DNA from: an uncultured Clostridia bacterium
GTDB taxonomy: Bacteria > Bacillota > Clostridia > Christensenellales > DTU072
Assembly (NCBI GenBank): GCA_934274515.1
Contig: CAKQTC010000012.1
Span: 3,723-67,722 of the forward strand
Length of the DNA stretch: 64,000 nucleotides
Direction of reading: 5' to 3'
A program made the translations under genes and the position numbers. A model generated the notes under the pieces. That model saw only the letters and a list, made by a program, of their open reading frames with translations. It searched no databases and was not told the DNA's origin. Positions 170 through 26,740 of this stretch are shown piece after piece. Position 1 is the first letter of the stretch; each line of letters begins with the position of its first letter.

Positions 170-355
170 ATGGAAAAAACAATTTCAAAGGAAAGCAATT
201 CTTTGGGCATTGATATTTTTATTAATGGGAAAATAGATGTTTTGGCTTTGCCCAAAGGTCTTTTGGAAAGCATAGCCATGCTCATGGAAACAGAAATAAT
301 AAATGATTTGGAAAAGAAACGTCAAAAGAAAAAGAAAGAGAGAAAAAATTTATGA
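170..355 (+). CDS. hypothetical small protein (61 aa, Lys-rich C-terminus)
   Basis: ORF with GGAG-type RBS (ctaaggagatagcaaaATG); no recognisable motif. Confidence 0.35.
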   Translation: MEKTISKESNSLGIDIFINGKIDVLALPKGLLESIAMLMETEIINDLEKKRQKKKKERKNL

Positions 356-383
356 TAAGCACCTTAAATAGGACAAAAAACTA

Positions 384-412
384 TTGACATGCAAAAAGCA
401 ATCATATATAAT
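384..412 (+). promoter_or_regulatory. sigma-70-type promoter upstream of the LexA-like repressor gene
   Basis: TTGACA (384-389), 17-nt spacer, TATAAT (407-412); short 5-2-5 inverted repeat caaca-aa-tgttg at 420-431 just downstream. Confidence 0.5.
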
Positions 413-453
413 CTATCTACAACAAATGTTGCATTTAGCAATGGAGTGTATAT

Positions 454-1062
454 ATGAGAAGTAAAAATGTCGAGTTAATGCAAAATATAATTCAGTATAT
501 AGACGATACATATTCGAAAATAGGTAGAACACCTTCATATAGAGAAATCGCAAGTAAATTTAACGTAGATTGTTCGATTATATCAAGGTATGTAAAGGAG
601 ATGGCGGATCGAGGTATGATAAAAATTACTCCCGGCAGTCGTGGTATAAGAACGGCAAGTATGGATAAAAACGATAAGGATAATATTCAAATCGGTGTTA
701 TCGGCGCTATTGCTTGCGGTACACCCATATATACCGAAGAAAATGTAGAAACATACATATCGTTCCCAAGACAGTTTTTAGGTAGCGGCAAGTTTTACAT
801 ACTAAGAGCTGTCGGAAACAGTATGGTAAATGCAGGCATAGAGGACGGTGATTTAGTTATTGTTCGTCAACAGGAAACTGCCGAGCAAGGACAAATAGTA
901 GTTGCTCTCATAAACGACGAAGCGACATTAAAGCGTTTCTATCGTGACGACAAAAAGCAAATGATACGCTTGCATCCCGAAAACGACGAAATGGAAGATA
1001 TGTATTTCGAGAGTATAGCAATTCAAGGTATAGCGGTTAAGGTGTTAAAGGATTTGGAGTAA
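454..1062 (+). CDS. LexA-family repressor (wHTH + S24 self-cleaving peptidase domain)
   Basis: 202 aa with full LexA architecture: N-terminal HTH (SYREIASKFNVDCSIISRYVKEMADRGMI), cleavage-site region VIGAIACGTPI (Cys-Gly as in UmuD), catalytic Ser in GNSM and Lys in ATLKRF. Confidence 0.8.
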   Translation: MRSKNVELMQNIIQYIDDTYSKIGRTPSYREIASKFNVDCSIISRYVKEMADRGMIKITPGSRGIRTASMDKNDKDNIQIGVIGAIACGTPIYTEENVETYISFPRQFLGSGKFYILRAVGNSMVNAGIEDGDLVIVRQQETAEQGQIVVALINDEATLKRFYRDDKKQMIRLHPENDEMEDMYFESIAIQGIAVKVLKDLE

Positions 1063-1233
1063 ATATTTATAATGTCACAAATAACCGAATAAAGTCCTAA
1101 CCCAAACTTTATAGGTTATGCGTTATATGTTATGCACTAAGGCTGACCTACTATTGTATAGGAGTTCCCAACCATACTTTAATAGTTTGTCAAATCCAAA
1201 ACCAAACGTGTTACGGGAAAAGGAGGAAAAGGA

Positions 1234-1425
1234 ATGTATAAGTTCATATCTTGCCCACAGTGCGGCAAACGTATTTGTCGAGCCGAACTTGGAAGTTCCA
1301 TTGCGATTACATGCTCTAATTGCAAGACGGACATTCAATGCGTAGTCGATAATGACGGTGGCGTACATACTTTGCTTATTATGGACATTGCATTAGCCAT
1401 AAAGAAAGCAGCAAATCAAACATAG
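1234..1425 (+). CDS. small zinc-ribbon protein (63 aa)
   Basis: CPQC...CSNC cysteine pairs; strong RBS aaaggaggaaaaggaATG. Confidence 0.45.
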   Translation: MYKFISCPQCGKRICRAELGSSIAITCSNCKTDIQCVVDNDGGVHTLLIMDIALAIKKAANQT

Positions 1426-1596
1426 AAAAATAATTAAAAACTTAATTTATTGAGATACGGCAGAATAAAACCTGTACTCGGCTAAGTATCGTTAAGAGGG
1501 ACTACCCGTATCAAAAGTTGTCGATACCTTTATATATAAGGTAGTAGAGTGTCTGAATTTGGCGGACGATAAAGTCCCAAAGCGGCCATCAGGAGA

Positions 1597-1651
1597 CCTG
1601 GCAATAGCTAAATCACAAAACGTGGTTTAACTATTGCTAGGCTCTTTTTTT
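1597..1651 (+). terminator. rho-independent terminator-like hairpin
   Basis: cctggcaatag (1597-1607) pairs with ctattgctagg (1631-1641, one G-U), followed by a T-run ctcttttttt. Confidence 0.55.
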
Positions 1652-1671
1652 ATGCCCTAATAGCAGTTTTT

Positions 1672-1715
1672 AGCCCGAAAATCGTGATTTAGCTCGTGAT
1701 TATCGGGCTTTTTCT
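1672..1715 (+). terminator. second terminator-like hairpin
   Basis: agcccgaaaatc / gattatcgggct stem (one mismatch) followed by ttttt. Confidence 0.45.
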
Positions 1716-1773
1716 TCATTGGAAATCTCCGGTAATAAATTTCGAAAGGCATTAAAAATTATGGAGGCTTACA

Positions 1774-2247
1774 ATGAAAAAATACACAATTATTATTCGC
1801 AAAAAAGACATTGACAAAGAGATAGCAGTGTGGGTTGACGACGAAATTTCCGTCTTGTTGGAACAAGTCGATAGCAAAACCCGAAACACATATTTAGCAT
1901 TAGAACACCAAACGTATTTGAATAATTTGAGAGAAACCCGTCGTCATAGTTCGATGGAAGTTTATCTTGCCAACGGAATGCAATTTCAAGCTGACGAAAT
2001 GACAGCGGAAGAAAGAGTTATTAAAGCGGAAACCCATTTAGCATTATGTTATGCCCTATCTACATTAAAGAAAAAACATTTGTGGCTACTTGAAGAGATT
2101 TACATAAAAGGCAGGCAACAACAAGAAATAGCCGCCGAGCTCGGGATAAGCAAACAGGCTTTTAGCGGTCGTATGAGCATCATTTATCGCAATCTAAAAA
2201 ATATTATTGAAAATTTTTCGGTACTAACCCGAAAGTCGCGCATTTAA
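1774..2247 (+). CDS. sigma-70 region-4-like HTH regulator (157 aa)
   Basis: C-terminal segment LWLLEEIYIKGRQQQEIAAELGISKQAFSGRMSIIYRNLKNI resembles the sigma region 4 HTH; no clear region 2 seen. Confidence 0.45.
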   Translation: MKKYTIIIRKKDIDKEIAVWVDDEISVLLEQVDSKTRNTYLALEHQTYLNNLRETRRHSSMEVYLANGMQFQADEMTAEERVIKAETHLALCYALSTLKKKHLWLLEEIYIKGRQQQEIAAELGISKQAFSGRMSIIYRNLKNIIENFSVLTRKSRI

Positions 2248-2291
2248 TATGCCGACGATAACGGCGAGAAAAAAATAAGGAGAAAAACACT

Positions 2292-2543
2292 ATGAAAGAA
2301 TTTATTGACTTTATCGAAAATGCGGACAATGTGTATCGTACCAAACATTTCATTGTCAAGCAAAAAGTAAACATTTGCAAAAGCGCAGTAATTGGGGACG
2401 CTATGATGATGAGCATAGATACCTACTACGCCCGCACACCGAGCCGAGATTTCGAATACGACATAATTTTCAAAACTCGTGGCAAGCAAATCGAAGGCAA
2501 ACGTATTATCGCGTCTATCTATACCCGAAAATACGTTGAATAA
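2292..2543 (+). CDS. hypothetical protein (83 aa)
   Basis: ORF with RBS aaggagaaaaacactATG, co-directional with its neighbours. Confidence 0.4.
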   Translation: MKEFIDFIENADNVYRTKHFIVKQKVNICKSAVIGDAMMMSIDTYYARTPSRDFEYDIIFKTRGKQIEGKRIIASIYTRKYVE

Positions 2544-2747
2544 CTAAATAATAGCGGTTGTCGGCTAATAAATAATGCGAATTTCAGCGAGTAATTACAT
2601 AAAAGAGCTTCTTTCGCCAATCGCCCGGAACGTAATGTTCATTCACACTCCGACAACCTTTGTTATATCTACAATCTAATATTTTTATTACGCTTAGCTA
2701 ACGGCAAAACGGGCAACGAAATCAAAAATTACGTACAAGGAGAAATT

Positions 2748-3029
2748 ATGGCTAACAACAATAACGAAAGGCGTTGGGTAGTCCCTTCCAAGAGGGCTAA
2801 GAGCTACGCCGAAGAACGTAAAGCAAAAGTTCATCAACATGGCGATAAGGAAGGCAAGGAGCTTACCGATTACGAGGCAGGGCTTCGCTCCGGGTATCTT
2901 CAATGTCAGTCCGACCATGCCGGTACTTATATTTACAAGAAAGCATTAGGCGAAGGTAAAACCAAAGAAGAAGCTAAAAAGCTGTCAAAGATTAAAGGAA
3001 AAGGTAAAGGAAAGAAGGAGGATAAGTAA
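2748..3029 (+). CDS. hypothetical basic protein (93 aa, KGKGKGKK tail)
   Basis: RBS caaggagaaattATG; strongly basic composition, so nucleic-acid binding is conceivable. Confidence 0.45.
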   Translation: MANNNNERRWVVPSKRAKSYAEERKAKVHQHGDKEGKELTDYEAGLRSGYLQCQSDHAGTYIYKKALGEGKTKEEAKKLSKIKGKGKGKKEDK

Positions 3030-3031
3030 AA

Positions 3032-3370
3032 ATGGCAGTAACAGTAAAAATCGAGCGTGAAACTTATGAAAAGAACGGAAAAACATTCTTCACTTATTTT
3101 ATAAAGGGCGTACTGAGAGGGAAAGAAGTCAAGGCTACTCTTGCTCCCCCCGATGTCGGCGGATATACCGTATTGGACATAGTATTCGATAATGCTATGG
3201 AAGCCGATCTCAGCATTAACCCGTTTGAGATGAAGGACAGCTCCGGCAACGTTATCAACGGCAAAACCTTTATTGTCAAGAGCGTTGACGAAAACGGCGA
3301 AGTCTATGAATGCAAAGTGAAGCCGCTCCGTCAGTCGGATAAAGATTTACTCGCAATGCTTTTCAAATAA
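3032..3370 (+). CDS. hypothetical beta-rich protein (112 aa; possible ssDNA-binding role, speculative)
   Basis: RBS aaggaggataagtaaaaATG, 2 nt after the previous stop; size and position resemble gene V-type proteins, but no motif was recognised. Confidence 0.4.
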   Translation: MAVTVKIERETYEKNGKTFFTYFIKGVLRGKEVKATLAPPDVGGYTVLDIVFDNAMEADLSINPFEMKDSSGNVINGKTFIVKSVDENGEVYECKVKPLRQSDKDLLAMLFK

Positions 3371-3435
3371 GAAAAACACTTAATCGCTGCGGCTTAGTCA
3401 CATAAGCCGTAGCTTATTAAAACAGGAGGATAAAT

Positions 3436-4515
3436 ATGAATCAAGAATTTAAGAACAGACATTCGGATACAGGGAAATGGATTGTTGTGTTTATCGCAAT
3501 TCTCATTCTTACCATATCGGTTGTTGCCGTTATGATCCCTGTGTATGGACCGTATATAGCGTCCATGATAAACAACAAGGCTGAAAACGCAACGGAAAAT
3601 GATACAGAAGAGGTTATGTCTATGACCTATTCGAGTTCGTCCAGATTGAAGCTCGCAGGTGGCTCCGGCTCGTCCTCTCCTTTCGAAAAAACCTTGATAG
3701 CGACGGTCTTGCCTGCCGACGCACCCGATAAAAGTGTTACTTGGTCGGCGGCGTGGACTTCCGATTCGAGCAGGAAGAACGAGGATGTGTCTAAGTACAT
3801 TACCGTAACGCCCGCTTCGTCCGGCTCTGCTACGGCAACCGTTAAGTGCTTAAAGGCATTTACCAATGACGTAGTTATGGTTACTGTAACGACTAACGTA
3901 GGCGGATTTACCGCAAGCTGTAGGGTCGAATATATCGGAACGCCCGAAACTCTTACTATCGGTACTACCGGGCTTACTGCCACCACCGATGCAAGTTGGG
4001 GAAATATAAAGATATATACGGGAAGCGTCGGCGAAACCTATTCTCTCCCTATAACTCTCGGAAACTCTCTTAATAGCGTTGGCTCGTCTTTCGGTAACTA
4101 TACCGTAACTATGGAAGTATTTGGTAGTGTAGTTGTAAATAATAAAGCAACCCGTTCCGGTGAAGTAACCAACACCGAAGAAACCTATTCGTATCGTATA
4201 GAAACCGCAGGGACTAATAATCCGCGTGCGGAAACTCAAGTCGGCAATTCCTTCAATATGCCTGTACTTGTACAAGGGATAGAAAACGGGAAATTGATTG
4301 TTAAAATCGGCGACTCTCCCAAATCTATATCGGTAACCGTAGGCGATAGAAGCGGCACTTCCACAAGAACATATCTCCGTTTTGTAGATAACAAGGAAGT
4401 GTATTGCAAAATAACCGTTACGGATACGGTAAGCGGCGTTTCTTCGAGTATCAATGTAAGACCTTTTTCGGCAATCACGTCCTTAGCGTTGAATGCTTCC
4501 ACCTTGCAATTTTAG
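3436..4515 (+). CDS. N-terminally membrane-anchored protein with Ig-like (Big_2-like) region
   Basis: TM helix WIVVFIAILILTISVVAVMIPVY; segment KSVTWSAAW...ITVTPASSGSATATVKCL...VTVTTNVGGFTASCRVEY resembles bacterial Ig-like domains. Confidence 0.5.
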   Translation: MNQEFKNRHSDTGKWIVVFIAILILTISVVAVMIPVYGPYIASMINNKAENATENDTEEVMSMTYSSSSRLKLAGGSGSSSPFEKTLIATVLPADAPDKSVTWSAAWTSDSSRKNEDVSKYITVTPASSGSATATVKCLKAFTNDVVMVTVTTNVGGFTASCRVEYIGTPETLTIGTTGLTATTDASWGNIKIYTGSVGETYSLPITLGNSLNSVGSSFGNYTVTMEVFGSVVVNNKATRSGEVTNTEETYSYRIETAGTNNPRAETQVGNSFNMPVLVQGIENGKLIVKIGDSPKSISVTVGDRSGTSTRTYLRFVDNKEVYCKITVTDTVSGVSSSINVRPFSAITSLALNASTLQF

Positions 4516-4527
4516 TGAGGTGACATT

Positions 4528-5115
4528 ATGGCGGCGAAGAGTAAGGCAATCAAAATAATATCCATAGTTTTAGCCGTCCTGATAGCCGTTGGAGCTTGTG
4601 GCGCAATAGCGTATTTCACTAACGGGTTTACAACGGATTTTGCAACATTCTATGTAACTATGGACGGCAAAGACTGTATGACCGACACTCGCGGAGTAGA
4701 ACTACCGATTTATGAAGCAACAGAAGTAAAAGTAAATTATACTTTCGATTTTGCCAGCTCTAACGCTACCGGTTATTCTCTAATCATTAAGCCATCCGGA
4801 GAAGTTGATTTCGATTTCGATGTGGACGGAGAGCCCTATTCCTTTTCGGGTGTCGAGGATTTATCCGCTGGATTTGAAATTGAAAAAGGAGAAGATTCAT
4901 TCACCATAAAACCTAAGGGCGATATTTTGAATATTCTTTCCGCTTGTTTTCCAGATAGCGCAGTGACTTTGGATTTAGCCGATGTAGAGATGACGGATAT
5001 TATGCTTCTTGAGGTGATTTCCTACAACAAAACGAGTAGCATCAAAATCTATTTTTCGGTTGCATCTACGGTAACCGGAGTTACGCTCAGCGAGGAGGTG
5101 ATTTATTTTGGATAG
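4528..5115 (+). CDS. N-terminally membrane-anchored protein (195 aa)
   Basis: TM helix IKIISIVLAVLIAVGACGAIAYF; RBS gtgaggtgacattATG. Confidence 0.45.
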   Translation: MAAKSKAIKIISIVLAVLIAVGACGAIAYFTNGFTTDFATFYVTMDGKDCMTDTRGVELPIYEATEVKVNYTFDFASSNATGYSLIIKPSGEVDFDFDVDGEPYSFSGVEDLSAGFEIEKGEDSFTIKPKGDILNILSACFPDSAVTLDLADVEMTDIMLLEVISYNKTSSIKIYFSVASTVTGVTLSEEVIYFG

Positions 5116-7165
5116 TCGCACAACCATTCGAATTGTATGTGTGATTATCCTTGCGGTAATGCTTTGCACCGTCTTTATGTCGGTGCAAAACACCGATTTA
5201 ATTGCACATGCCGAAACAGGCGGGTTTGAATCGACAAATGTATTTGATGATCTAACTTCGTCCACCGTCAACGGAAAGAAATTCGATATAACGGCTTACC
5301 CGTTTGATGAAAGCAAGGATATGCGGGTGATAGATTTCGTTGAGTATTGTTATTCGTATAAGAAAAATTTGAGTAGCAACTATGGATTGTATGTGTATGT
5401 ATATAACCCGAAAGGGCTGAACATATCCACTAAAAACAAGGGCAATAAAATTCAAATGGCTGTGTCCTACGACAGTGAAGGCAACCCTAACGATTATGTG
5501 AAGTTCGACCTGCAATTTTGCAATAAGAGCGAGAAGGCAGATTATAAAAACCTATACTACAAATTTAAGGTGGTTGATAAGAAGGTCAACGGAACTACAT
5601 TTTACGAGCGTGTAAACAGCATTAAAAGAAGGTACGACGTTTCCGGGATAGAGCTTACTACCTACGGAAATGATAACGCTACGGAATATACGGTTGCGGG
5701 AACATACAACTTTACGGGTTATGCCGAAGGTTACGGACCGGACGCAAAGGAAAAAAGCACATTGAGTTGCGAGATTCAATATCTCGAAACAATTACGCTT
5801 GAAGTGCACCACACTTTCTATCGGACAATGACTTCGGTTAAGGGTGCAGGCTATCAGAACCAATTAGACACCGTATATTTTGCAGTCCCGAAACGGTATT
5901 TCGACACCTACGGCAAGTTGCAAAGGATAAAAGCCGAGTGGTACGAGTACAAGACCAATGATATTGTCGTCACGAGCAACAGCGATTTCTATAACAAGGC
6001 TTCGCCGTATCTCGGAGTCCAAACAGGTCCTTTCGACCAATTCGGAATGACGGCATACAACGCAAATATAGGAATATCGCTCGGTCAAAATGCAGGAGAC
6101 GCAGGCGGCGGAATGTATGCGGCACAATGGGGCTGGAACTTGGGAAGCGGATATTTACACGTTCCTTGCGCAACGCTCTATTACTTGTTCAAAACGAACA
6201 ACAGTATTTCGTCCTACGATCCCTATGCGGATATAGTGAAGAACGGCGGCGTATCGAGTAACGCTCTCTATGAATATATCAAGAGCTACAATAAGACGCA
6301 CGATAAAGGTTATTTACCCATAAAGGAAGGCACGATCAGCGCCGACCTGTTTGCCGACGACATAGACGAGTATCGAAAGATGGATACCGAGTTCGGCAAG
6401 ATACAAAAGGGATATAGCTACTACGATTTTGACGCCGACGTTGACCTGCAAAAGTTAGCCTCTTGGCAATCGGGCAATCCGTCCTTTTGGGATAATTGGT
6501 TAAATTGGGGGCTATGGAATTCCCTGTTCGGGAATATTCCGAAGGAAGATAGCAAAACCCTTTCGCCCATATATACCCTTAAAGAAAGCGACCTTACGGG
6601 AAGCAATTCGGAGATAGCCGACAGACTAATGATTAACGCAAACGACGTAGGCGAATTGAAGAATTTTTACAGGGATGCCGTCACCGTTTCGGGGAAGGAC
6701 GACGAGGAAAAAGTTGTCGTGCTGTTCAGGTTTGCGACAAGCGACTACTACTCCGCTCCGGTGGATATTATCAAGATTAAGACCGGAATATTCGGTTCGG
6801 ATAAGCACGCGAAGGGGGAAGCCTATCGTGCTTGGGAGAGCGTGTTTTTCGACTTCGACATAATCCAACTGACCTTTAACAAGGACGGAGCGTATAAGGT
6901 AATCCCCGTTGTGTCGAGCCCCATCGACATAGTGGACGCAATAACGCCGCCGGTACAGTTCGATGAATTGGAATGGTGGAAAATACTACTTGCGATAGTC
7001 TTGCTAATACTGCTTATAATCATTTTCACGCCACTCTTACCCTACATAATAAATGGCGTAATTTGGTTAATTTCGTTGCCGATTAAGGCAGTGAAAAAGA
7101 TAGCGAAAAGCATAGAAAAACGCAAGGAAAAGAAACAACTGAAACAGACCACGAAGGAGGTATAA
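5108..7165 (+). CDS. large exported protein with N-terminal signal/anchor and C-terminal TM anchor plus basic tail (spike/adsorption-protein-like topology)
   Basis: TTG start 7-8 nt after gaggaggtg; N-terminal hydrophobic IRIVCVIILAVMLCTVFMSV; C-terminal WWKILLAIVLLILLIIIFTPLLPYIINGVIWLISLPI followed by KAVKKIAKSIEKRKEKK. Confidence 0.5.
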   Translation: MDSRTTIRIVCVIILAVMLCTVFMSVQNTDLIAHAETGGFESTNVFDDLTSSTVNGKKFDITAYPFDESKDMRVIDFVEYCYSYKKNLSSNYGLYVYVYNPKGLNISTKNKGNKIQMAVSYDSEGNPNDYVKFDLQFCNKSEKADYKNLYYKFKVVDKKVNGTTFYERVNSIKRRYDVSGIELTTYGNDNATEYTVAGTYNFTGYAEGYGPDAKEKSTLSCEIQYLETITLEVHHTFYRTMTSVKGAGYQNQLDTVYFAVPKRYFDTYGKLQRIKAEWYEYKTNDIVVTSNSDFYNKASPYLGVQTGPFDQFGMTAYNANIGISLGQNAGDAGGGMYAAQWGWNLGSGYLHVPCATLYYLFKTNNSISSYDPYADIVKNGGVSSNALYEYIKSYNKTHDKGYLPIKEGTISADLFADDIDEYRKMDTEFGKIQKGYSYYDFDADVDLQKLASWQSGNPSFWDNWLNWGLWNSLFGNIPKEDSKTLSPIYTLKESDLTGSNSEIADRLMINANDVGELKNFYRDAVTVSGKDDEEKVVVLFRFATSDYYSAPVDIIKIKTGIFGSDKHAKGEAYRAWESVFFDFDIIQLTFNKDGAYKVIPVVSSPIDIVDAITPPVQFDELEWWKILLAIVLLILLIIIFTPLLPYIINGVIWLISLPIKAVKKIAKSIEKRKEKKQLKQTTKEV

Positions 7166-7324
7166 ATGAAAACATTCAAGAGAGTAATCGCCGTTATTCT
7201 CTTGGTGCTTGCGGTACTGTTTATCGGCTACTTCGTTTTTACAGGTAGCCGATTTTCTTTACCGATTGAAGCAACGGAAACGGCAAATTTAATCAAGGGG
7301 GTACAATTATGGAAAAGCGTATAA
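7166..7324 (+). CDS. small single-pass membrane protein (52 aa; not in the supplied ORF track)
   Basis: ATG at 7166 after aaggaggtataa; MKTFKRVIAVILLVLAVLFIGYFVFTG...; overlaps the next gene start. Confidence 0.3.
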   Translation: MKTFKRVIAVILLVLAVLFIGYFVFTGSRFSLPIEATETANLIKGVQLWKSV

Positions 7325-9426
7325 AGGAACTTAATATATCAATAACGGTAGCCTTAACAGTTATATTTGCGTTACTCGGCTATTTGTATTTTTGTTCCTC
7401 GTATATAAGGCTCGGCGAAGGCTTTGTCGATTTATGGAATAGCATAAAGTTCTATTTGGGCAGCATATTCGGCTTTAATATTTCGGCTACGATAACCGTA
7501 ACAGAGCCGTCGCAGGTCTTTACTTGGAGTTCGTATTTACCTAAGAATTTTGACGGATTTAAGGAAAGTTTTAAGGGGTATTTTCAACTCTTTTTTACGG
7601 GAGAAAACGTCAAAAACTTTTTCGTATATCTCGGTGAGATTATAGGGAAAATCGCAAAGGTGTTATTGATAATTTTGCCTTGTATTTTAGGTGTGATTAT
7701 ATTCATAAAATTGCTTTACGGACAAAGCAACGTCAAGCATAACAAGGATACGATCCCATTAAGGATATTCAAGGCAACGACGAAGTGTACCGTTCCCGTC
7801 CGGGAATACATAAAGCAGTATGTAGATTATGTGAAGGCTAATTCGGCTATCTATACCGTATGGCTTATTATCTGGGCTCTACACTTAAACCTTGTCGGCA
7901 TAGTTATAGAGTTCCTCGCCTTCTATCTTTACTTTTCCTTGCAGTACGATTTTATCAATATCTATGTGCAGGTGTGCAAGCTCATTATAGACTTCAACGT
8001 GCTATTCAAGAGTGTGCCCGTTATCGTTCCGATTGGCATAGGCATTTACCTGTTCGATAGGTGGAGAAGAAAAATCGCGCTCAATACCTTACGGAAGAAC
8101 GAAGCTCGGAACTGTGGCTTTATAAACGAGCTGCCTATCGTGTCGATGGACTGCGGAAGCATGGGAAAAAGGAAAACCACCGCTATAACCGATATGGCAA
8201 TAAGTCAAGACGTAATGTTCAGACAAAAGGCGTTTGAGCTATTGCAAAAGAACGATATGAAGTTCCCGTTTTTCTCATGGATAGCCTTCGAGACGGAGTT
8301 GCGGAAATGTATAGAGCATAAGACGGTGTACAACCTCGCAACCATAAAGGAATGGGTGAAGCTGAAACAGCGCCGCTACGAAAAGCACCGCAATGCCGAT
8401 TGGCAACTGTACGGATATGACGTTAAAAGGTACGGCGACGTATATTATGACGGCTTGAAAAGGTATTATTTGTTCGATGTACTCTCTACATACGCCCGGC
8501 TCTATTTTATCTATGTAATCGAGAGCTGCCTAATCGTTTCCAACTACGCTATAAGAACGGACAACGTAATGCTCGACGCAGGGAATTTCCCTATGTGGGT
8601 AAACGATTTCTTTCCGGAAACGAAAAGGCGTGAAAGTAGGTTTTCTCATATACTCGATTTCGACGTGTTGAGGCTCGGCAAGAAGGTCATAGAGGACAAT
8701 CCCAATATCGGCAGTTTTGAGTTCGGCGTGGTAGTCATTACCGAAGTAGGCAAAGAGCGTGGGAATAACCTTGAATTGAAAGAGTTGAAGAAGGGAACGG
8801 AAGAAACCAACCAGAAGAACGACCTGTTCAACTCATGGCTGAAAATGTGTAGGCACTCGGCGACGGTGGATAATTTCCCGTTTATAAAAGTATTTACCGA
8901 CGAGCAAAGACCGGAATCGTGGGGAGCTGACGCAAGGGATCTATGCGAGATAGTACATATAGTTTCGGCGGGAGAAACCAAGCTCGCTTTACCCTTCTAT
9001 ACCATAGAGGAAATGATAGCCGACCACCTGTTCAGAGGGTTTATGAATTTGTACTATGACTTCCGTTACAGGCGTGGAGATAACACCCTTTTGGTGTACC
9101 TGTTCAAGTGGGTTACTTCGGTGATTTTTAGGCACAATGTACGCATCTATAACAGGTACGGTTTTAGCCAATTAAAGGTGGAAAAAGAAGCAGGCACAAT
9201 GGACGGTAAACCGACGAAAAAGACGTATTGTTTGATGAACCAAAAGATATACAGTAGCCGTTTCAGCACAGACTGTTTCAGCGATTACTTTAACGATATG
9301 GCGAAGAAAACAAACGTCGGCTTGAATGACTATATAGAGTATGCCTGCGAGAAAGCGAGCGTCGAAGAACTGAAATTACAAAACAGTTATTTTATCAATT
9401 CATTATACAACAAGGGGGTGAAATAA
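7309..9426 (+). CDS. polytopic membrane domain fused to a putative (deviant) P-loop NTPase-like domain (705 aa)
   Basis: About 270 aa with several hydrophobic helices, then DCGSMGKRKTTAITD (Walker-A-like but non-canonical) and hydrophobic-strand/acidic motifs GVVVITEVGK and IKVFTDEQR. Confidence 0.45.
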   Translation: MEKRIKELNISITVALTVIFALLGYLYFCSSYIRLGEGFVDLWNSIKFYLGSIFGFNISATITVTEPSQVFTWSSYLPKNFDGFKESFKGYFQLFFTGENVKNFFVYLGEIIGKIAKVLLIILPCILGVIIFIKLLYGQSNVKHNKDTIPLRIFKATTKCTVPVREYIKQYVDYVKANSAIYTVWLIIWALHLNLVGIVIEFLAFYLYFSLQYDFINIYVQVCKLIIDFNVLFKSVPVIVPIGIGIYLFDRWRRKIALNTLRKNEARNCGFINELPIVSMDCGSMGKRKTTAITDMAISQDVMFRQKAFELLQKNDMKFPFFSWIAFETELRKCIEHKTVYNLATIKEWVKLKQRRYEKHRNADWQLYGYDVKRYGDVYYDGLKRYYLFDVLSTYARLYFIYVIESCLIVSNYAIRTDNVMLDAGNFPMWVNDFFPETKRRESRFSHILDFDVLRLGKKVIEDNPNIGSFEFGVVVITEVGKERGNNLELKELKKGTEETNQKNDLFNSWLKMCRHSATVDNFPFIKVFTDEQRPESWGADARDLCEIVHIVSAGETKLALPFYTIEEMIADHLFRGFMNLYYDFRYRRGDNTLLVYLFKWVTSVIFRHNVRIYNRYGFSQLKVEKEAGTMDGKPTKKTYCLMNQKIYSSRFSTDCFSDYFNDMAKKTNVGLNDYIEYACEKASVEELKLQNSYFINSLYNKGVK

Positions 9427-10431
9427 TTGTGGTATCAAGAGTGTAAAGTTTACTCCGACGGCAGTCACTATATCGCTATTCCTCATACTACGAGGAAGGT
9501 CAAAAAAGCTACGCCCAAGCCGGAAGAACTTATAACCGTCGTGGAGAAAAAGGAGCAGACCGACGCTAAGGATACGGAACAAAAACAAGATACTACAAAA
9601 AAGCAAGAAAATATAGATAAGGAAACCAACAATACAAATTCGGCAACCCAAGAACGGCAAATGACAAGAAAAGAGCTGTTTGAAGAATTGTATGAGAAAA
9701 GTAAAAATATGCCTAAGCGTAGCCGTAGGAAATATATACTTGACGAAATGAAAAAATACTTTACGAATGCCCAATGGGCTGCCGATTACGTTGACGAAAA
9801 TATAGCAAGAAAACGTCGTAATTTAATATGCCGTCGTGTAAGATTATGCCGCAAAGTCAACCTCGCCGACTTCAACTATTTCTGCACCTTCACCTATGAC
9901 GGTAAGAAGCTGACGGAAGAAGAATTCCAAAGCAAGCTAAGAACTTGTTTTAAGATGCTATGTCATAGAAAGCATTGGAGATATGTCGGAGCGTGGGAGC
10001 GATCCCCCGAAAAACACCGCTTGCATTTTCATGGATTATTCGATATTCCCGATGGTACGTTACCGGGCGAAATAATTGAAGTAAACGACTATTCTCCGAT
10101 AAAAAAGAGAGTGCAAAAAACATACCAATGCACATATTTTAACGAGCGTTTCGGAAGGTCTGATTTTAGCAAAATCGACACTAACGCAACTCTCGGAGCG
10201 GCTGTTGCTTACCTCATAAAATACATTGAAAAGTCCGGTGAAAAAATAGTGTATAGCAAGAACCTTCCGCAGTTCTTCATAAGTGACATTAACGAAGATG
10301 ATGTCATCTGCAACATAGGACAGGAAGAAAAGAAACTACTTCTCTTTGACGATTTCACCTGTTGGGACGAAGGAGAATACGTCGGACCCGTCAGCGACGA
10401 AACGATAGCGAAACTACGCAAATCTAATTAG
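9427..10431 (+). CDS. rolling-circle replication initiator (HUH endonuclease, phiX174 gpA-type)
   Basis: Motif 1 FCTFTYD, HUH motif LHFHGLF, double-Tyr motif YLIKYIEK (compare phiX174 gpA YVAKYVNK); TTG start after caagggggtgaaataa. Confidence 0.7.
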   Translation: MWYQECKVYSDGSHYIAIPHTTRKVKKATPKPEELITVVEKKEQTDAKDTEQKQDTTKKQENIDKETNNTNSATQERQMTRKELFEELYEKSKNMPKRSRRKYILDEMKKYFTNAQWAADYVDENIARKRRNLICRRVRLCRKVNLADFNYFCTFTYDGKKLTEEEFQSKLRTCFKMLCHRKHWRYVGAWERSPEKHRLHFHGLFDIPDGTLPGEIIEVNDYSPIKKRVQKTYQCTYFNERFGRSDFSKIDTNATLGAAVAYLIKYIEKSGEKIVYSKNLPQFFISDINEDDVICNIGQEEKKLLLFDDFTCWDEGEYVGPVSDETIAKLRKSN

Positions 10432-10571
10432 AGCATATAGCGTAATATATCGGCGTTAAAAACGATGAGAATAAACTGACGAAGAAGGCGGGCTGATCCA
10501 CAAGCGGGTTAGCGTGGACAGCCGCCTCGCAGTTTTCTCGTTTTAGCGATATAGCGGTTTGCCTAATAGTA

Positions 10572-10627
10572 GCGTGTGCTTGTCGCCGGAGCGAAGCGAC
10601 GGCTCTCGTATCAAGACAAGCACACGC
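10572..10627. repeat. 13-bp perfect-stem hairpin in a GC-rich pocket between rep and the recombinase gene
   Basis: gcgtgtgcttgtc (10572-10584) and gacaagcacacgc (10615-10627) are exact reverse complements, with a 30-nt loop. Confidence 0.6.
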
Positions 10628-10692
10628 CACGGTTGCAATCAAGGGATTTTGATAAAATATCCCTACCCTGAAAACAGGATAAGGAGATTAAA

Positions 10693-11607
10693 ATGAAATA
10701 CATAGAATGGTTAAATACTTGGCTCAGCATTTATGTTAAGCCTACGGTAAAATCACAAACGTATATGCGGTATGAACATATAGCGAAAACTCACCTTGCA
10801 AGAGGGTTGGGTGAATATGAATTAGACGAGCTTTCGGCATTGCTATTACAAAAATTTGTCGTTAGCTTATCGGAAGAAAAACATTTGGCAAGCAATACGG
10901 TAAATTCCATAATTACCGTTATTCAAAAGTCACTCCAAGTGGCAGTAAATGTCGGTGTAGTAACGGCTGAATATTCAAATAAAATTCAACGCCCGAAAAC
11001 AGTAGAAAAAGCGGTGGAAAGTTTTAGCGAAAAAGAACAAAAAGAGATTGAGGCATTTGTATTGAAAAATCAGAAAAATAGTAAACTTTTCGGAATAATT
11101 TTATGCCTATACAGCGGACTGCGTATTGGAGAATTGTTGGCGTTAAAATGGGAAGATATTGATTTTTCAAGAGGAATTATGACTATTTCGAGGTCGTGTC
11201 ACGACGAATACAAGGATGGGAAATTGCTTAAAGTATATGATACTCCGAAAACGAAAACTTCCATAAGAACGATACCTATTCCCAAGCAGATAATTCCGCA
11301 CTTAAAACAAATAAAAAAGAAATCGGATAGCGAGTATGTTGTCAGCGACAAAAATGATATAGGCATAAGAAGTTATCAAAAGACGTTTGAGTGCATACTA
11401 AGGAAATTACATATTCCCCGTAAAGGCTTTCACGCTCTCCGCCACACCTTTGCCACTCGTGCGATAGAATGCGGAATGGATGTAAAAACACTGTCGGAAA
11501 TTTTGGGACATAAAAACCCCGAAATTACTCTAAAACGTTATGCACACAGTATGCTTGAACACAAGGCGGAAATGATGAATATCGTCGGAAAGAAGCTGTT
11601 TCAATAG
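10693..11607 (+). CDS. tyrosine site-specific recombinase (304 aa, no arm-binding domain)
   Basis: N-terminal SAM-like core-binding domain; catalytic signatures GLRIGELLALKWEDID, HALRHTFATRAIE, LGHKNPEITLKRYAH. Confidence 0.85.
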   Translation: MKYIEWLNTWLSIYVKPTVKSQTYMRYEHIAKTHLARGLGEYELDELSALLLQKFVVSLSEEKHLASNTVNSIITVIQKSLQVAVNVGVVTAEYSNKIQRPKTVEKAVESFSEKEQKEIEAFVLKNQKNSKLFGIILCLYSGLRIGELLALKWEDIDFSRGIMTISRSCHDEYKDGKLLKVYDTPKTKTSIRTIPIPKQIIPHLKQIKKKSDSEYVVSDKNDIGIRSYQKTFECILRKLHIPRKGFHALRHTFATRAIECGMDVKTLSEILGHKNPEITLKRYAHSMLEHKAEMMNIVGKKLFQ

Positions 11608-11617
11608 TGTTGAATTA

Positions 11618-11646
11618 TTGCAAAAAGACAAGGATTATGGTATAAT
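11618..11646 (+). promoter_or_regulatory. sigma-70-type promoter for the KilA-N gene
   Basis: TTGCAA (11618-11623), 17 nt, TATAAT (11641-11646). Confidence 0.5.
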
Positions 11647-11674
11647 ACAACTAGCATTTGTATAGGAGTTTTTT

Positions 11675-12487
11675 ATGTCAACCAAAGAGATAATAGTAAA
11701 GGGAATCGACGTTAGATACAACAAGATCAATAACGAGGATTTTATATGTCTTACCGATATTGCCAAAGCAAAGAATCCCGATCATTCCGGTATAGTTATA
11801 ACGCATTGGCTTAGAAATTACTCGACGATAGAGTATCTCGGTTTGTGGGAGACGTTACACAATCCCGATTTTAATGTAACCGAATTCGGTAACTTTAAAA
11901 ATAAGTCCGGAGAAAATTCTTTTGTGTTGACGGCACAGGATTGGATAGATAAAACAAACGCTGTCGGGCTAATATCAAAGAGCGGGCGCTACGGCGGGAC
12001 ATATGCTCATAGAGATATAGCTTTTAAGTTTGCGAGTTGGATTTCGGTAGAATTTGAATTGTATTTAATTACCGAATTTCAAAGATTGAAAGTTGAAGAA
12101 CAAAAAGAACTCGAATGGAATGCAAAACGTGAGCTCGCCAAGCTCAACTATCACATTCATACCGATGCAATTAAGGAAAATATCGTTCCGACTTTGTCCG
12201 AAGAACAGTTAAAATATGTCTATGCCAACGAAGCGGATGTTCTGAACGTGGCGCTGTTCGGAAAAACGGCGAAGGAGTGGCGTGACGAAAATCCGGACAA
12301 GAAGGGCAATATTCGTGATTATGCTTCTGTGGAGCAATTACTTGTTATCGCAAATATGGAGAGCTATAACGCTATTTTAATAGAGCAAGGCGTGCCTCAA
12401 AGCGAACGCTTAAAACAGCTTAATATTATGGCAAGGAACCAACTGAAAATTTTTCAGAATCAGGATATGAGTCGGTTCATAGATTAA
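11675..12487 (+). CDS. KilA-N domain-containing protein
   Basis: N-terminal pattern IIVKGIDVRY...DFICLTDIAKAK...WLRNYSTIEYLGLWE...GRYGGTYAHRDIAFKFASWISVEFELYLI is typical of KilA-N family proteins. Confidence 0.7.
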   Translation: MSTKEIIVKGIDVRYNKINNEDFICLTDIAKAKNPDHSGIVITHWLRNYSTIEYLGLWETLHNPDFNVTEFGNFKNKSGENSFVLTAQDWIDKTNAVGLISKSGRYGGTYAHRDIAFKFASWISVEFELYLITEFQRLKVEEQKELEWNAKRELAKLNYHIHTDAIKENIVPTLSEEQLKYVYANEADVLNVALFGKTAKEWRDENPDKKGNIRDYASVEQLLVIANMESYNAILIEQGVPQSERLKQLNIMARNQLKIFQNQDMSRFID

Positions 12488-12790: not shown

Positions 12791-15700
12791 ATGAAAAAAT
12801 TCGGTAAAATTATGGTGGTTATAGGCTTGCTTTCAATGGTGATTGTTGCTATGGTAGCCTGTAACGGATTCAAGGTAGGCATTAGATTTATGGTAGACGA
12901 CGAGGTTTATCGTGAATTTAAAACAACCGGCAGCGAGGTTATCGAAATGCCCGAAAGTCCGACGAAAGAAGGATACGTTTTCCGTGGTTGGTTTTTTGAC
13001 CCCGGAATATGGCAACAGCCGTTTACGGTAAATTCGTTCCTCGATCAGCCGATAAGCGATATAATTTATATTCACGCTTATTTTATTACGCAGGAAGAAG
13101 CGGACAGCATTAAGACGGTGACGTACAACGCTATGGACGGTAGCGCGGTCGACAGCGTAGAGGTAAAAATAGGCAACAGGCTTTCCGAACCGACGACTCC
13201 GACAAAAGACGGATATATTTTCATAGGCTGGTTTACTACAGCCGATTTTGCCGAAAAGTGGAATTTCACGTCCGGCATAGTCAATTCTGATATAACGCTT
13301 TATGCAAAGTGGGTAGAGGATATCCCCGAAAACCGTACTTACACCGTCGCGTTTAACGCTAACGGCGGAAGCAGCGTCGATAATTATACCGAGATCGCCT
13401 ACAACGCGCTTATCGCAAAGCCTCTCAACCCCGAAAAGGACGGCTACGCGCTTGCAGGCTGGTACACCGACAATACCTTTGCAAAGGAATGGAATTTCGA
13501 ACTCGATAAAGTAACTGATAATATAACTTTGTACGCGAGATGGGAACAAGCCGACGTCACCGCTTGCAGTATTATCAAAAGCGAGGGCTTTAATAAAATC
13601 GAAAACGACGGCGAAATCGAATTGTATATAAAGGTTCCCAACGCACAGGAAAAATTCTCTTTCCTAAATAAAATAGAAGTAAGCCCCTTTGCCTCTTGGA
13701 AAGTAGTCAACGACTTACAAGGAAAAGACGAGGTGCCGAGCGGGACTGTGGAAATATCCGTCGGCGATAACGTAAAATACATACTTGTGACGTCCTATGA
13801 CGGAACACACAAAAAGTTTTATAAAGCGACCGTTAGACGCAGACCTATGTATCAAGTGTCCGTCAATCCGAACAACGGCGAAGATATCGACGTTATGACC
13901 TTGGAAGAGGATTCTTTAATCGACGGCGATTATTTAAGGAAAGGTTATATAATAGATAAATTTATATATATAGAAAACGAAGAAGAAAAAGAATGGAATA
14001 TAGCGGAAGACGTCGTAACGAAGAATATTTCCATTGACGTCGTTTGGAGAGCGGCAAACTATTCCGTGACTTTCGATTCCGACGGCGGTAGCAAAGTCGA
14101 AAACGCGGAGATAGACTATGACGGGGAGTTCTCTTTCGGAGTCCCCGAAAAACTCGGATACGATTTTGTCGGTTGGGCTTATAACGATATTCTCATAACC
14201 GACGGACAGGGTAAAGGTCTTGCCGTTTGGAACATAGACAAAGAAAAAATAGAACTGAAAGCCGTTTGGCAAGCGACGGTCTATTCAGTTTCTTACGGCA
14301 ATTTGAAAGGCGCAACAAATACCAATGCCGCAAGTTATACTATCGAAACGTCCGTTACTTTTGCGGATATAGCCCAAGAGGGATACACCTTTATCGAATG
14401 GCAAGACGAAAAAGGCGAAAAAATAACGGAAATATCCGAAGGAAACACGGGCAATAGAACGATAACGGCGGTATGGAATTTGATAGGATATAAAGCGACG
14501 TTCAAAGCCGACGGCGCAGTCTTGTCGGTCGTTGATTTCAACGTGGAAACGGAACAAGTAACCGAACCGACTATCCCCGAAAAAACAGGATATACGCACG
14601 CATACGAAGAATATTCTTTCGTTGCTCGCGATATTACCGTAAATGCCGTCTATACTCCCATAGTTTACACCATTACTTACGCCAACGTAAGCGGAAATTA
14701 CGATATAGACGCGCCCGTAAACGGCAACCCGACAACGTATACTATCGAAACCCCGACGATAACGCTTCAAAATGCAAGCAAATCGGGATATACTTTTGCA
14801 AATTGGACTGTCGGCAATGATGCAATAACGCAAATTCCTCTCGGCTCTTACGGAAATAAAACGATAAAAGCTAATTGGAACGCTATCGAATATAAGGTCG
14901 CTTTCGTTATGGAAAATGCCGACGGAGAGTACGAAGGACACTACGAAAGCGAAGAAAATCCTACGACTTACACAATCGAGGACGCGTTTACCTTTATAGA
15001 GCCCGTTTGCGATATCCTCGGTTATGATTTCAAAGGCTGGTACACTACGAAAAACGAAGAAGGTGTAAAAGTGGAAAAAATCGGTGCGAAAACTACCGGC
15101 AATAAAACGTTCTACGCACAGTGGCATAGGATTGACTATACCATTAATTACGTAGGCGTGGACGGCGGCTACAACGACAATCCCGATACATACAACGTCG
15201 AATCGGACACCATCACTTTGGATAATCCGACCAAAAACGGTTATACTTTTGTAGGTTGGTTCACCGACGAGAGCAAGACCGTTGCGGCGACGCCGATTGC
15301 TACGGGAAGCGTCGGCAATCTTACGTTCTTTGCTAAGTGGGATATAATAACCTATACCGTTACTTACATACTTTATGACGGCACGAACGACGCGAGCAAT
15401 CCGAGCAATTACAATATAGAGAGCAACCTTGCTCTAAAAAATCCGACGAAAGAGGGCTATAGCTTCGGCGGTTGGTTCACAAACGCAGACTTTAACGAAG
15501 AAATTAAGTCCATTGCGCCCGGAATGAGCGGCAGCCTTACCTTATACGCAAAGTGGTACTATGTCGGGACGATTACTTTCGTGACCAACGGCGGCAGCGC
15601 GATAGCTCCCGTTACGCAGGAATACGGCACGGCTATTAAAAAACCCGCCGACCCGACCAGAAATTATTACACCTTTGACGGTTGGTACGAGGACAGCGAT

Positions 15701-21262: not shown

Positions 21263-21271
21263 AACAGCCTT
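21253..21271 (+). other. hairpin immediately 3' of the VR (DGR cruciform-like element)
   Basis: aaggctg-taaaa-cagcctt, a 7-bp stem, starts 5 nt after the VR end and spans the stop codon. Confidence 0.5.
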
Positions 21272-21396
21272 AAATCACCGTTAATCACGGCGAAGCAAAA
21301 TCATCGGCAAGGGGAAGAAACGGCGTTTTGCGCCCTTCCCCGAAGCCGTAAAGGGCGATTGAAACCGCGTAAGCGGTCGAAAAATTTTTTGATAAA

Positions 21397-21774
21397 ATGC
21401 AAAAGAAAAACGACCTATTTGTAATAACAAAAACAAAAGATATAGCTAAGTATATAATAACGGTGACGGAAAAAAGCCCGAAAAAGTTTCGTTATACGCT
21501 AACGACGAAATTGCAGAATTTTGCATTGGACGCGCTGGAATATTTGTATTTAGCCAACACCGAGAGTTTGGGGGAGAAGAGAGAGAATTTACAAAAGGAG
21601 GCGAGAACAAAATTATCTTTATTAGACTACTTTGCCGGACTTGCCGCCGAACAGGAATGTATACTTTTTAAGCAATATGAGTTTATTTCGAAAGAAGTCG
21701 CTTCGGCAATAATGTATCTCGACAAGTGGAGAGCAAGCGACAAAAAAAGGGTATCTACGACGGTATCGTCGTAA
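21397..21774 (+). CDS. avd: DGR accessory variability determinant (Avd-like four-helix-bundle protein)
   Basis: 125 aa, helical, basic; lies between target and TR as in canonical DGRs; sequence pattern ...KYIITVTEKSPKKFRYTLTTKLQNFALDALEYLYLAN... is typical of four-helix-bundle Avd proteins. Confidence 0.7.
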   Translation: MQKKNDLFVITKTKDIAKYIITVTEKSPKKFRYTLTTKLQNFALDALEYLYLANTESLGEKRENLQKEARTKLSLLDYFAGLAAEQECILFKQYEFISKEVASAIMYLDKWRASDKKRVSTTVSS

Positions 21775-21820
21775 TGATATAAGTGAAGCGTTATTAACAA
21801 AATGCGTTTTCGCTATTTGC

Positions 21821-21946
21821 GGTTATTGGTGGCTTCGTTCGCCTAACAACAATAATAGCAACAACGCGCGCAACGTCAACAACGACGGGTCGTTAGACAA
21901 CAACAATAACGTCAATAACACTAATAACGGGGTTGTGCCCGATTTG
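21821..21946 (+). other. DGR template repeat (TR)
   Basis: 126 nt built from runs of AAC/AAT codons (conceptual translation GYWWLRSPNNNNSNNARNVNNDGSLDNNNNVNNTNNGVVPDL); matches the VR ends exactly. Confidence 0.85.
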
Positions 21947-22151
21947 TTTCTCACTCGTATTGCTATGGCAAGCGAGGAAGAACGGTAAAGAGGCTGAGGT
22001 AAGTACCTCATGCACAGTACTCGAAACAAAGGAACGCTTCACTTTCCCGTAGTGCAATCTGCGGGAAAATCAACCGGCGGACGGCGCGACTTAGGAAATA
22101 ATTTGCGCCCGTGAGTAAAATCCCGTCGGTTTTTTTAATGGAAAATGTAGA

Positions 22152-23263: not shown

Positions 23264-23587
23264 TTAAGCTAAAACATTTCTATCGGGTATGTAAATATGA
23301 TCGCCAATAGATATTGCTTTATACTTAATGCCGTCTTGTTCATAGGTTGTATAAGTAGGCTTGCCTTTTATCTCGTTCCGAAGGAAAAAGACGTTTGCGT
23401 CATATTCGACTTTACCGACATTTCCTTCAAGGAATTTTTCGTCGTTTCCTACCTCGATAATTTTGAAGCCTTTCTCTATTAGCGCTGCCGAAAATTGCCA
23501 TAGCTTTTGAAATTTACCGTTTGAGTCGGCAAGCATCGTAGCGTCGAGTTCGGGGTGATAAGCTGTAATTCTAAAATAGTTTGACAT
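23264..23587 (-). CDS. hypothetical protein (107 aa)
   Basis: ORF with RBS (caaaggagaaattattATG on the minus strand); last gene of the minus-strand array; convergent with the RT gene. Confidence 0.45.
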   Translation of the reverse strand: MSNYFRITAYHPELDATMLADSNGKFQKLWQFSAALIEKGFKIIEVGNDEKFLEGNVGKVEYDANVFFLRNEIKGKPTYTTYEQDGIKYKAISIGDHIYIPDRNVLA

Positions 23588-23605
23588 AATAATTTCTCCT
23601 TTGCG

Positions 23606-25857: not shown

Positions 25858-25859
25858 TT

Positions 25860-26304: not shown

Positions 26305-26318
26305 ATTAGGTTACCTCC

Positions 26319-26720: not shown

Positions 26721-26740
26721 TGTTTTTATCTCCTTTATGA

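Follow-up and report, generated by a model that had tools for sequence, protein, structure and literature searches.

The question raised by the stretch of DNA analysed here, 64,000 nucleotides (nt) of contig CAKQTC010000012.1 from an uncultured member of the Clostridia (Christensenellales; the whole stretch is referred to as the window), is what kind of mobile element occupies its left part and by which means such an element may travel between cells. Positions 170-12487 hold a tight run of genes, all co-directional on the plus strand, which the original prediction had counted as 18 and had taken for the full extent of a single non-tailed temperate element. We counted 15 solid open reading frames (ORFs), or 16 including a doubtful one at 1118-1345, and the limits had to be redrawn on both sides. 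The conserved plus-strand module runs from the gene of a LexA-like repressor (position 454) to two DNA hairpins lying 3' of a replication initiator (Rep) gene and ends at about 10638-10643; the genes at 10693-12487 are cargo, and the integrated element reaches to the right as far as about 27.9 kb, while its start lies before window position 1 and its left part is cut off by the window edge. It spans about 30 kb here, with a cargo that includes a diversity-generating retroelement, and core and arms amount to about 18 kb without cargo. This is a very common yet undescribed integrated mobile element of gut Christensenellales. In its best-supported reading, to which we assign a probability of roughly one half, it is an integrated, SOS-inducible, rolling-circle-replicating, capsid-less and non-tailed temperate virus-like element. 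The family would belong to the non-tailed, chronically released temperate viruses or else to the integrative transfer elements.

The gene order of the module is common to about 80 related loci and comprises the genes of the LexA-like repressor, a Zn-ribbon protein, a sigma-like factor, proteins of 83, 93, 112, 359 (one to three paralogues), 195 and 685 amino acids (aa), a transmembrane (TM) protein of about 50 aa, a 705-aa NTPase and the Rep. These loci were recovered from human, ruminant, rabbit and other gut samples, in metagenome-assembled genomes (MAGs) assigned to Christensenellaceae, Christensenellales and other Clostridia. Several single MAGs carry two to three copies of the element, and all twelve core genes are intact and conserved across hundreds of diverged lineages. 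No description of the family was found in the libraries and literature searched. Core proteins were searched as single sequences and as profiles (A1-A4), and the 83-, 93-, 112-, 359-, 195-, 685-, 52- and 705-aa proteins matched no entry of Pfam, PHROGs, NCBIfam, PADLOC or the PDB sequences; two proteins of a conserved minus-strand block (see below) were likewise without a match among the PADLOC defence models. The original prediction had seen no terminase, portal, capsid, tail, relaxase, VirB4 or VirD4 candidate and had proposed profile searches that might reveal them, and neither these nor any other coupling protein appeared among the core proteins in Pfam, PHROGs or NCBIfam.

The Rep gene (9427-10431, plus strand) encodes a rolling-circle initiator of the HUH type with HFH and two-tyrosine YLIKY motifs, in line with the YxxxY motif noticed at first. 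The protein belongs to Pfam family PF23343 (REP_ORF2-G2P, the family of plectrovirus ORF2 and inovirus G2P; 38.0 bits against a cut-off of 27.8, 2e-9), the kind of rolling-circle initiator that is typical of inoviruses and plectroviruses, and Reps of this kind are annotated in relatives too. PF23343 is its only significant Pfam family, one further match lying at chance level under the cut-off (E 0.089). It also weakly matches microvirus-like Reps in tblastn searches and has no relative among 72,556 plasmids (PLSDB).

Directly behind the Rep gene stand the two hairpins. Hairpin 1 (10473-10535, plus strand) has a stem of 15-20 bp and the conserved loop AAGCGGnTnAGC; among 67 distinct versions, all but one fold around this motif, and they do so with 41 different stem arms. 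This hairpin is a candidate for the Rep nick site and origin. Hairpin 2 (10567-10633, plus strand) consists of an inner stem-loop, an invariant bulge CTYGTATCAA and a covarying outer stem. Its arms GCGTGTGCTTGTC and GACAAGCACACGC (10572-10584 and 10615-10627) are identical in all 27 aligned relatives, and a scan for the exact arms recovered at least 120 further metagenome contigs, giving 168 sequences altogether. Compensatory changes occur at four pairs of the outer stem, in 5-13 of the 27 sequences. Neither hairpin matched an Rfam family or fits a simple terminator pattern. Because the stems of both covary, the hairpins probably act as folded single strands, in keeping with an HUH nickase and with a stage at which the DNA is single-stranded.

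The hallmark gene of the family (7309-9426, plus strand) codes for the 705-aa protein, in which a helical membrane domain (residues 1-275) precedes a P-loop NTPase (276-705), an architecture that had been foreseen and that is borne out by an AlphaFold (AF2) model (mean confidence, pLDDT, 90.6) with about eight membrane helices followed by an alpha/beta NTPase. Among the candidates scored, clustering of the family at 90% identity gives more than 2,900 clusters; at 50% identity there are 971 with E <= 1e-3, and 506 of these reach E <= 1e-30. When 61 diverse members are aligned, they share a canonical Walker A motif G.MG.GKTT with K289 and T290 invariant, a Walker-B-like strand that ends in an invariant glutamate (ITE479) and a subsequent DEQR534PES motif in which R534 is invariant. 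In a Foldseek comparison of the full model with the PDB, nothing was found below E 0.3, and the matches were generic ASCE/AAA and packaging ATPases, the best being AAA proteins, the STIV2 B204 packaging NTPase and HerA, with TcpA at E 1.4. Among the viral models of BFVD it matched one unnamed 269-aa protein (E 2.4e-4) and, more weakly, ATV ORF286, a PM2-like structural protein, Zot of Inoviridae sp. (probability 0.72 and 0.41) and A32-like ATPases. The best named fold matches (STIV2 B204, PM2-like, Zot, A32-like) are viral packaging or morphogenesis NTPases, a resemblance that is suggestive only. No relative of the NTPase occurs in PLSDB. The 705-aa proteins form a new family of membrane-embedded ASCE NTPases, and that of the element is a candidate morphogenesis or export motor.

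Upstream of this gene lie those of the membrane-anchored proteins, the TM segments and anchors of which were located by a hydropathy scan and agree with the exported or anchored proteins listed in the original prediction. The 359-aa protein (3436-4515) has an N-terminal TM anchor (16-34) and an Ig-like (Big_2-like) ectodomain, is present in one to three divergent paralogues per element, and 7 of 32 members of its family weakly match Big_2; the acidic 195-aa protein (4528-5115), assigned by hydropathy and conserved position, also has an N-terminal TM anchor. The 685-aa protein (5108-7165) is beta-rich and exported, with an N-terminal signal (TM 9-27), a C-terminal TM segment (626-644) and a basic tail, and is a candidate spike or adsorption protein. 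The 52-aa protein (7166-7324) has a basic N-terminus, one TM segment, as had been proposed, and a variable acidic, Thr-rich tail, and holds the position of inovirus pVI and of ORF2 of Acholeplasma virus L2 (Plasmaviridae, NC_001447); all four genes are on the plus strand. Identity among relatives is 17-34% in the 359-aa family and 28-71% in the 685-aa family, compared with about 60% in the NTPase, and the surface proteins are the fast-evolving, paralogue-rich part of the module.

The AF2 model of the 685-aa protein (pLDDT 72) was compared by Foldseek with the approximately 350,000 viral models of BFVD, and its only match with E <= 1e-3 was L2 ORF1 (P42536; E 3.4e-4, probability 0.57), aligned over the full length. 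BLAST aligned collinear segments of the two proteins at E 0.5-1.4, and a profile of four L2 ORF1 sequences gave a 16-column match to the 685-aa protein, at E 0.05 and thus without significance, which covers two motifs of local invariance shortly ahead of the C-terminal anchor. The two proteins are possibly related. The homologue search for building the L2 profile yielded three sequences, and L2 ORF1 homologues are about 40 residues longer at the N-terminus, with a signal-peptide-like start (L076, phage L2, 246-2021); since they carry this additional segment, the annotated start of L2 ORF1 may be too far downstream.

The Rep family, the NTPase and the short TM protein together also bear on the idea that the element is a very divergent member of the Tubulavirales, i.e. 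a filamentous phage of a Gram-positive host with single-stranded DNA (ssDNA), in which the 705-aa protein would be an enlarged pI/Zot and the ~50-aa TM protein a coat protein of inverted topology. Such a phage would account for the PF23343 Rep, for a pIII-pVI-pI-like gene order beside it, as in Propionibacterium phage B5, for Zot among the fold matches of the NTPase and for structured hairpins adjoining the Rep gene, which recall the intergenic region of f1. Nevertheless, none of the 61 NTPase members matched Pfam Zot at E <= 1, and hhalign of profile A1 with M13 pI, B5 orf8 and L2 ORF3 recovered the Walker A motif alone, or nothing. A likeness of motifs between the NTPase and Zot that strikes the eye was accordingly kept as a lead and not as a result, as hhalign aligned the P-loop only. 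Furthermore, pI-like proteins may have N-terminal TM domains (PMC6813254), but one or two of them, as against about eight helices in the NTPase; core and arms reach about 18 kb before any cargo; and no coat protein of 30-90 aa with a basic C-terminus is encoded, the ~50-aa protein, which is the sole short single-TM candidate, having the reverse charge layout of pVIII and B5 orf5 and being a doubtful equivalent. We consider this alternative improbable, and the Inoviridae/Plectroviridae membership that had been proposed was not supported; what survives of that proposal is the class of a non-tailed temperate element with inovirus- or plasmavirus-like gene logic, which the Rep family, the gene order and the L2 ORF1 match support.

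Distant relatives, in which the NTPase is 34-38% identical, are informative as to how the module is built. Their NTPase gene still stands beside genes of Flg_new-repeat surface proteins and a Rep. In one distant relative (L224, 7054-9008; L223, 4425-5360), the PF23343 Rep has been swapped for an HUH Rep with Rep_OBD and SF3-helicase-like domains, followed by a tyrosine integrase, and Flg_new-repeat proteins stand in place of the 359-aa family. Because the NTPase and surface genes stay when the type of Rep changes, the NTPase goes with the surface-protein module and not with replication. The replacement of a Rep by an unrelated HUH Rep amounts to module shuffling, which is typical of viruses.

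The left side of the module, all on the plus strand, encodes regulators and small proteins. A perfect sigma-70 consensus promoter (TTGACA-17-TATAAT, 384-412) directly precedes the gene of the LexA/CI-like repressor (454-1062), identified as such at the outset, which has an S24 autopeptidase domain (Pfam Peptidase_S24, 5e-31) and is present in most related loci. The expected 63-aa Zn-ribbon protein (1234-1425) is conserved in part of the family. The regulator first described as resembling sigma region 4 (1774-2247) is an ECF-like sigma factor with regions 3-4 (Sigma70_r4, weak; phrog_11138, 5e-15; NCBIfam sigma70-ECF, 2e-7) that probably activates the long operon. Next follow an 83-aa protein (2292-2543) with 46 homologues in related loci and no family match, and a 93-aa basic protein (2748-3029; isoelectric point 9.7), the best conserved of the module, which has no PDB or family match, reaches up to 86% identity where the NTPase has about 60% (alignment A4) and is a candidate DNA-binding or condensing protein. 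For the 112-aa protein (3032-3370; alignment A3, mean column identity 60%, no PDB match), a role as a beta-rich ssDNA binder would be a guess from its sequence.

The recurrent integrase of the family is a large serine recombinase on the opposite strand, to the left of the LexA-like gene. It was found in this position in at least 17 loci, among them the contig that contains the window, on which it is situated about 0.5-2 kb to the left of window position 1. At the right end the element is flanked by a tRNA-Arg gene (28322-28398, minus strand), with host genes beyond; tRNA-Glu or tRNA-Ser stands there in other loci, and tRNA-Met adjoins the serine recombinase in L017 and L029. Starting at 28.3 kb, the window is ordinary chromosome, with an M20 peptidase, a tRNA synthetase, a BspA-like leucine-rich repeat protein, Mfd and a Y-family polymerase. 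This host part also encodes another giant surface protein (33727-42036; 2769 aa), in which 17 stretches of leucine-rich repeats of the BspA type and one Flg_new repeat occur. No direct repeats of the att type were found at the element, and the contigs of 12.3-12.6 kb that were checked for terminal overlap had none and are not circular.

Between hairpin 2 and the minus-strand block there is a slot for variable cargo. Near-identical elements of different samples turn to unrelated DNA mostly 11-16 nt past the 3' arm of hairpin 2, a divergence point that we considered as the end of the element and dropped, because the minus-strand block is conserved past the variable DNA. The tyrosine recombinase (10693-11607) and the KilA-N protein (11675-12487), both on the plus strand, had been rightly recognized, but they are variable cargo outside the conserved set, the former not being the integrase of the element nor the latter a core gene. 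Either gene recurs right behind hairpin 2 in other loci. Tyrosine recombinase genes stand within about 130-240 nt of hairpin 2 in unrelated members (here at 10693-11607, and in L125, L147 and L164); by analogy with integron or Xer recombinases, which act on folded DNA, such an enzyme may act on the hairpin. A complete diversity-generating retroelement follows as further cargo (12791-23243, plus strand), composed of a target gene (12791-21262) for a 2823-aa protein with Flg_new repeats and a DUF6273 C-terminus, a bAvd gene (21397-21774), a template repeat (TR, 21820-21898) and a reverse transcriptase gene (22152-23243). The variable repeat (VR, 21124-21202) departs from the TR mainly at template adenines.

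Differing defence cargo directly after hairpin 2 was found in the near-identical elements L077-L084 (about 13.4-22 kb, locus coordinates), e.g. a type I restriction-modification system with several inverted hsdS genes, a HinfI-type restriction-modification system, an AAA-M41 protease, and a PAPS-reductase/Dnd-like set with a 1380-aa protein; the region after hairpin 2 is a hotspot at which defence genes are exchanged. Assemblies made independently break off at hairpin 2 or shortly behind it (L002 and L093, both from sample ERZ26858192, L092, L094 and L095), which suggests mixed downstream variants within samples. Reduced derivatives were recognized among L147, L187, L117, L208, L120, L141 and L150, some consisting of the serine recombinase, Rep and hairpins, with no morphogenesis gene (L187 also has the minus-strand block), and others of a recombinase and hairpin 2 without the Rep. 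These derivatives may be satellites or mobilisable remnants.

An abrupt change of sequence a few nt after hairpin 2, a two-tyrosine HUH enzyme adjoining hairpin ends, the presence of several copies per genome and the lack of detected att repeats would also be expected of a non-transmissible or decayed island, the membrane proteins of which would serve the host in surface variation or exclusion and the Rep and hairpins of which would serve local amplification or transposition of the IS91/Helitron type. We regard such an island as the most improbable of the explanations considered, in view of the intact and widely conserved core genes, the serine or tyrosine integrases that accompany the module and the tRNA genes at the element ends; moreover, the Rep matches no Y2-transposase family and is accompanied by twelve other conserved genes.

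The right arm of the element is a conserved block of nine minus-strand genes (23264-27835), coding for a 107-aa, a PcfJ-like, a PcfK-like, an 83-aa, a 68-aa, a 133-aa, a DUF7222, a 131-aa and an 89-aa protein. In the third of these (24904-25857), the PcfK-like domain is fused to MutS domain I, the mismatch-binding domain, and this fusion is conserved in the block. The block converges on the hairpins. At least 20 loci have it downstream of the Rep gene, and in L013 and L031 it adjoins the hairpins directly. Its gene content evokes a new integrative conjugative or mobilisable element, in which the Rep would be a relaxase acting at the hairpins as oriT, the NTPase a translocase or coupling protein, the 685-, 359- and 195-aa proteins mating adhesins and the minus-strand block a leading region, the first to be expressed in the recipient. 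As judged from its orientation, the block would be templated by a transferred plus strand, and the LexA-type switch, the serine recombinase and the defence-rich cargo slot are also typical of integrative conjugative elements (ICEs). The same interpretation could draw on the derivatives made of recombinase, Rep and hairpins, which resemble mobilisable elements, on the near absence of the element from virus catalogues, and on TcpA and HerA/FtsK-type ATPases among the weak fold matches of the NTPase. Nonetheless, we consider conjugation, the foremost of the rival readings, unlikely, given that no core protein matched a VirB4, VirD4/TcpA, FtsK_SpoIIIE, relaxase or peptidoglycan hydrolase family, that neither Rep nor NTPase has relatives in the plasmid collection and that the Rep family is viral. 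PcfJ- and PcfK-like proteins are included in PHROG families, and they therefore occur in phages as well, and modules for virion assembly are what the L2 ORF1 fold match and the order of the genes suggest.

Under the reading as a temperate virus-like element, the serine recombinase would integrate the element and the LexA-type repressor would silence it. DNA damage would lead to self-cleavage of the repressor, whereupon the sigma-like factor would switch on the long operon, and the serine recombinase would excise the element. The Rep would nick the hairpin region, at the loop of hairpin 1 or the bulge of hairpin 2, and start rolling-circle replication. In the role of inovirus pI or L2 ORF3, the membrane-anchored NTPase would move or assemble the DNA at the membrane, perhaps with the 93-aa basic protein as a coat, and the DNA would exit in a particle bearing the 685-, 359-, 195- and ~50-aa proteins, released non-lytically by extrusion or budding. 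The variable Ig-like and 685-aa proteins would then bind the next host, and the minus-strand block would serve establishment in the new cell.

Several observations weigh against this reading. The L2 link is a single Foldseek match with TM-scores of 0.14-0.16 and a query model of pLDDT 72, and the profile comparisons of the 685-aa protein with L2 ORF1 are not significant (hhalign E 0.15 and 0.05). Kinship of the NTPase with Zot/pI is undetectable by sequence, and an inovirus-type major coat protein was not recognized among the element genes. The host has a cell wall, which makes L2-like budding hard to picture, and about 30 kb with cargo is large for such viruses. The PcfJ/PcfK-like genes take their name from a conjugative plasmid. 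Virus catalogues are nearly empty of the element, with two IMG/VR contigs and one unverified GenBank 'Bacteriophage sp.' scaffold. Finally, in the one readable sample, coverage taken from contig names was 6.5x for the module and 5.5x for the neighbouring cargo, with no sign of an amplified episome.

Christensenellales are a gut taxon that the literature links to host genetics and leanness, and if particles are made, a major virus group would be added for them. Plasmavirus L2 would then gain its first relatives, which could connect the assembly modules of plasmaviruses and inoviruses. Counts of non-tailed, chronically released phages are far too low, since virus finders use hallmark genes that these phages lack, and the family would be an example, with thousands of variants in the gut metagenomes of humans and animals as against the two IMG/VR contigs. 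If the element is conjugative instead, it would represent a machinery for transfer that has neither VirB4 nor any known coupling protein. Either way, it provides a new family of membrane NTPases of about 700 aa, a conserved pair of DNA hairpins suited to biochemistry, and a slot for cargo through which restriction systems and a diversity-generating retroelement are spread.

Among known systems, the integrative conjugative and mobilisable elements of Firmicutes and the actinomycete elements (AICEs) of the pSAM2 type resemble the element in general layout, with an integrase, a repressor, an initiator of the rolling-circle replication (RCR) type, a membrane NTPase and small membrane proteins, as well as defence-gene cargo slots and PcfJ/PcfK-like genes. 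Unlike them, the element showed no match to an FtsK/TraB, VirB4, type IV coupling protein or relaxase family among its core proteins, TcpA being a weak fold match, and its Rep and NTPase are absent from plasmid collections. The Pleolipoviridae, in turn, have a C-terminally anchored spike, small membrane proteins, an NTPase and, in some, an RCR Rep, as does the element, but unlike it they infect archaea. Homologues of a VP4-type spike, a VP3-type membrane protein or a VP8-type NTPase did not emerge, as the BFVD matches listed for the models of the NTPase and the 685-aa protein included no pleolipovirus entry, within the sensitivity of Foldseek and with unnamed entries present, and the relationship to pleolipoviruses envisaged earlier thus found no backing. 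A passage in PMC7547991 gives pleolipovirus genomes as ssDNA or double-stranded DNA.

The Gram-positive inoviruses (B5 and the phages of Enterocloster) share with the element an HUH Rep of the PF23343 kind and a non-lytic gene content (PMC10061712). The order orf6-orf7-orf8-orf9 of phage B5 (Paulinoviridae) corresponds to 685 aa, ~50-aa TM protein, NTPase and Rep in the element, the first three of which also match the order III-VI-I of M13. The criteria of Roux et al. for inoviruses include a Zot-like pI with one or two TM domains and short (30-90 aa) coat proteins with a single one (PMC6813254), and Zot matches have been reported for the Enterocloster phages (PMC10061712). In contrast with these phages, which have 5-8 kb, a Zot-family pI and short coat proteins, the element has neither a Zot match nor a clear coat candidate. 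The membrane domain of its NTPase is large, and a serine recombinase is present along with a minus-strand block and a slot for cargo.

Acholeplasma virus L2 differs from the element in lacking an HUH Rep, as it replicates from DnaA-box origins with the host replisome, whereas the element encodes an HUH Rep with its hairpin sites; it also has a tyrosine integrase, no minus-strand block, no cargo slot, an NTPase of 312 instead of 705 aa and a wall-less host. According to its profile by the international virus-taxonomy committee (ICTV), L2 shares no protein but the integrase with other known viruses, and in BLAST searches of all window proteins against L2 only integrases matched; the Walker-B/'RH' stretch of the NTPase is collinear with L2 ORF3 in hhalign, at a profile similarity that is not significant. 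Both are capsid-less and temperate, with about 11-12 kb of tightly packed co-directional genes, and their gene orders agree. L2 has ORF13, ORF14 (Ig-like, with a signal peptide and a C-terminal anchor), ORF1 (591 aa, C-terminal TM segments), ORF2 (81 aa, TM), ORF3 (312 aa, hydrophobic N-terminal segments before Walker A, then Walker B) and the integrase, and in the same order ORF13/14 correspond to the 359- and 195-aa proteins, ORF1 to the 685-aa, ORF2 to the 52-aa and ORF3 to the 705-aa protein. It is conceivable, albeit doubtful, that the elements are the first relatives of L2 outside Acholeplasma, a large and unrecognized lineage of capsid-less, membrane-assembled temperate viruses of walled, health-associated gut Clostridia (Christensenellales), in which an L2/inovirus-type assembly block would be combined with a microvirus/inovirus-type Rep and the bulged hairpin on the Rep side would serve in addition as a site-specific swap platform for defence systems and a retroelement. 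L2 is a temperate virus that mitomycin or UV can induce, and tRNA genes are the integration sites of prophages related to it (PMC12662186); this inducibility parallels the LexA-type switch predicted for the element.

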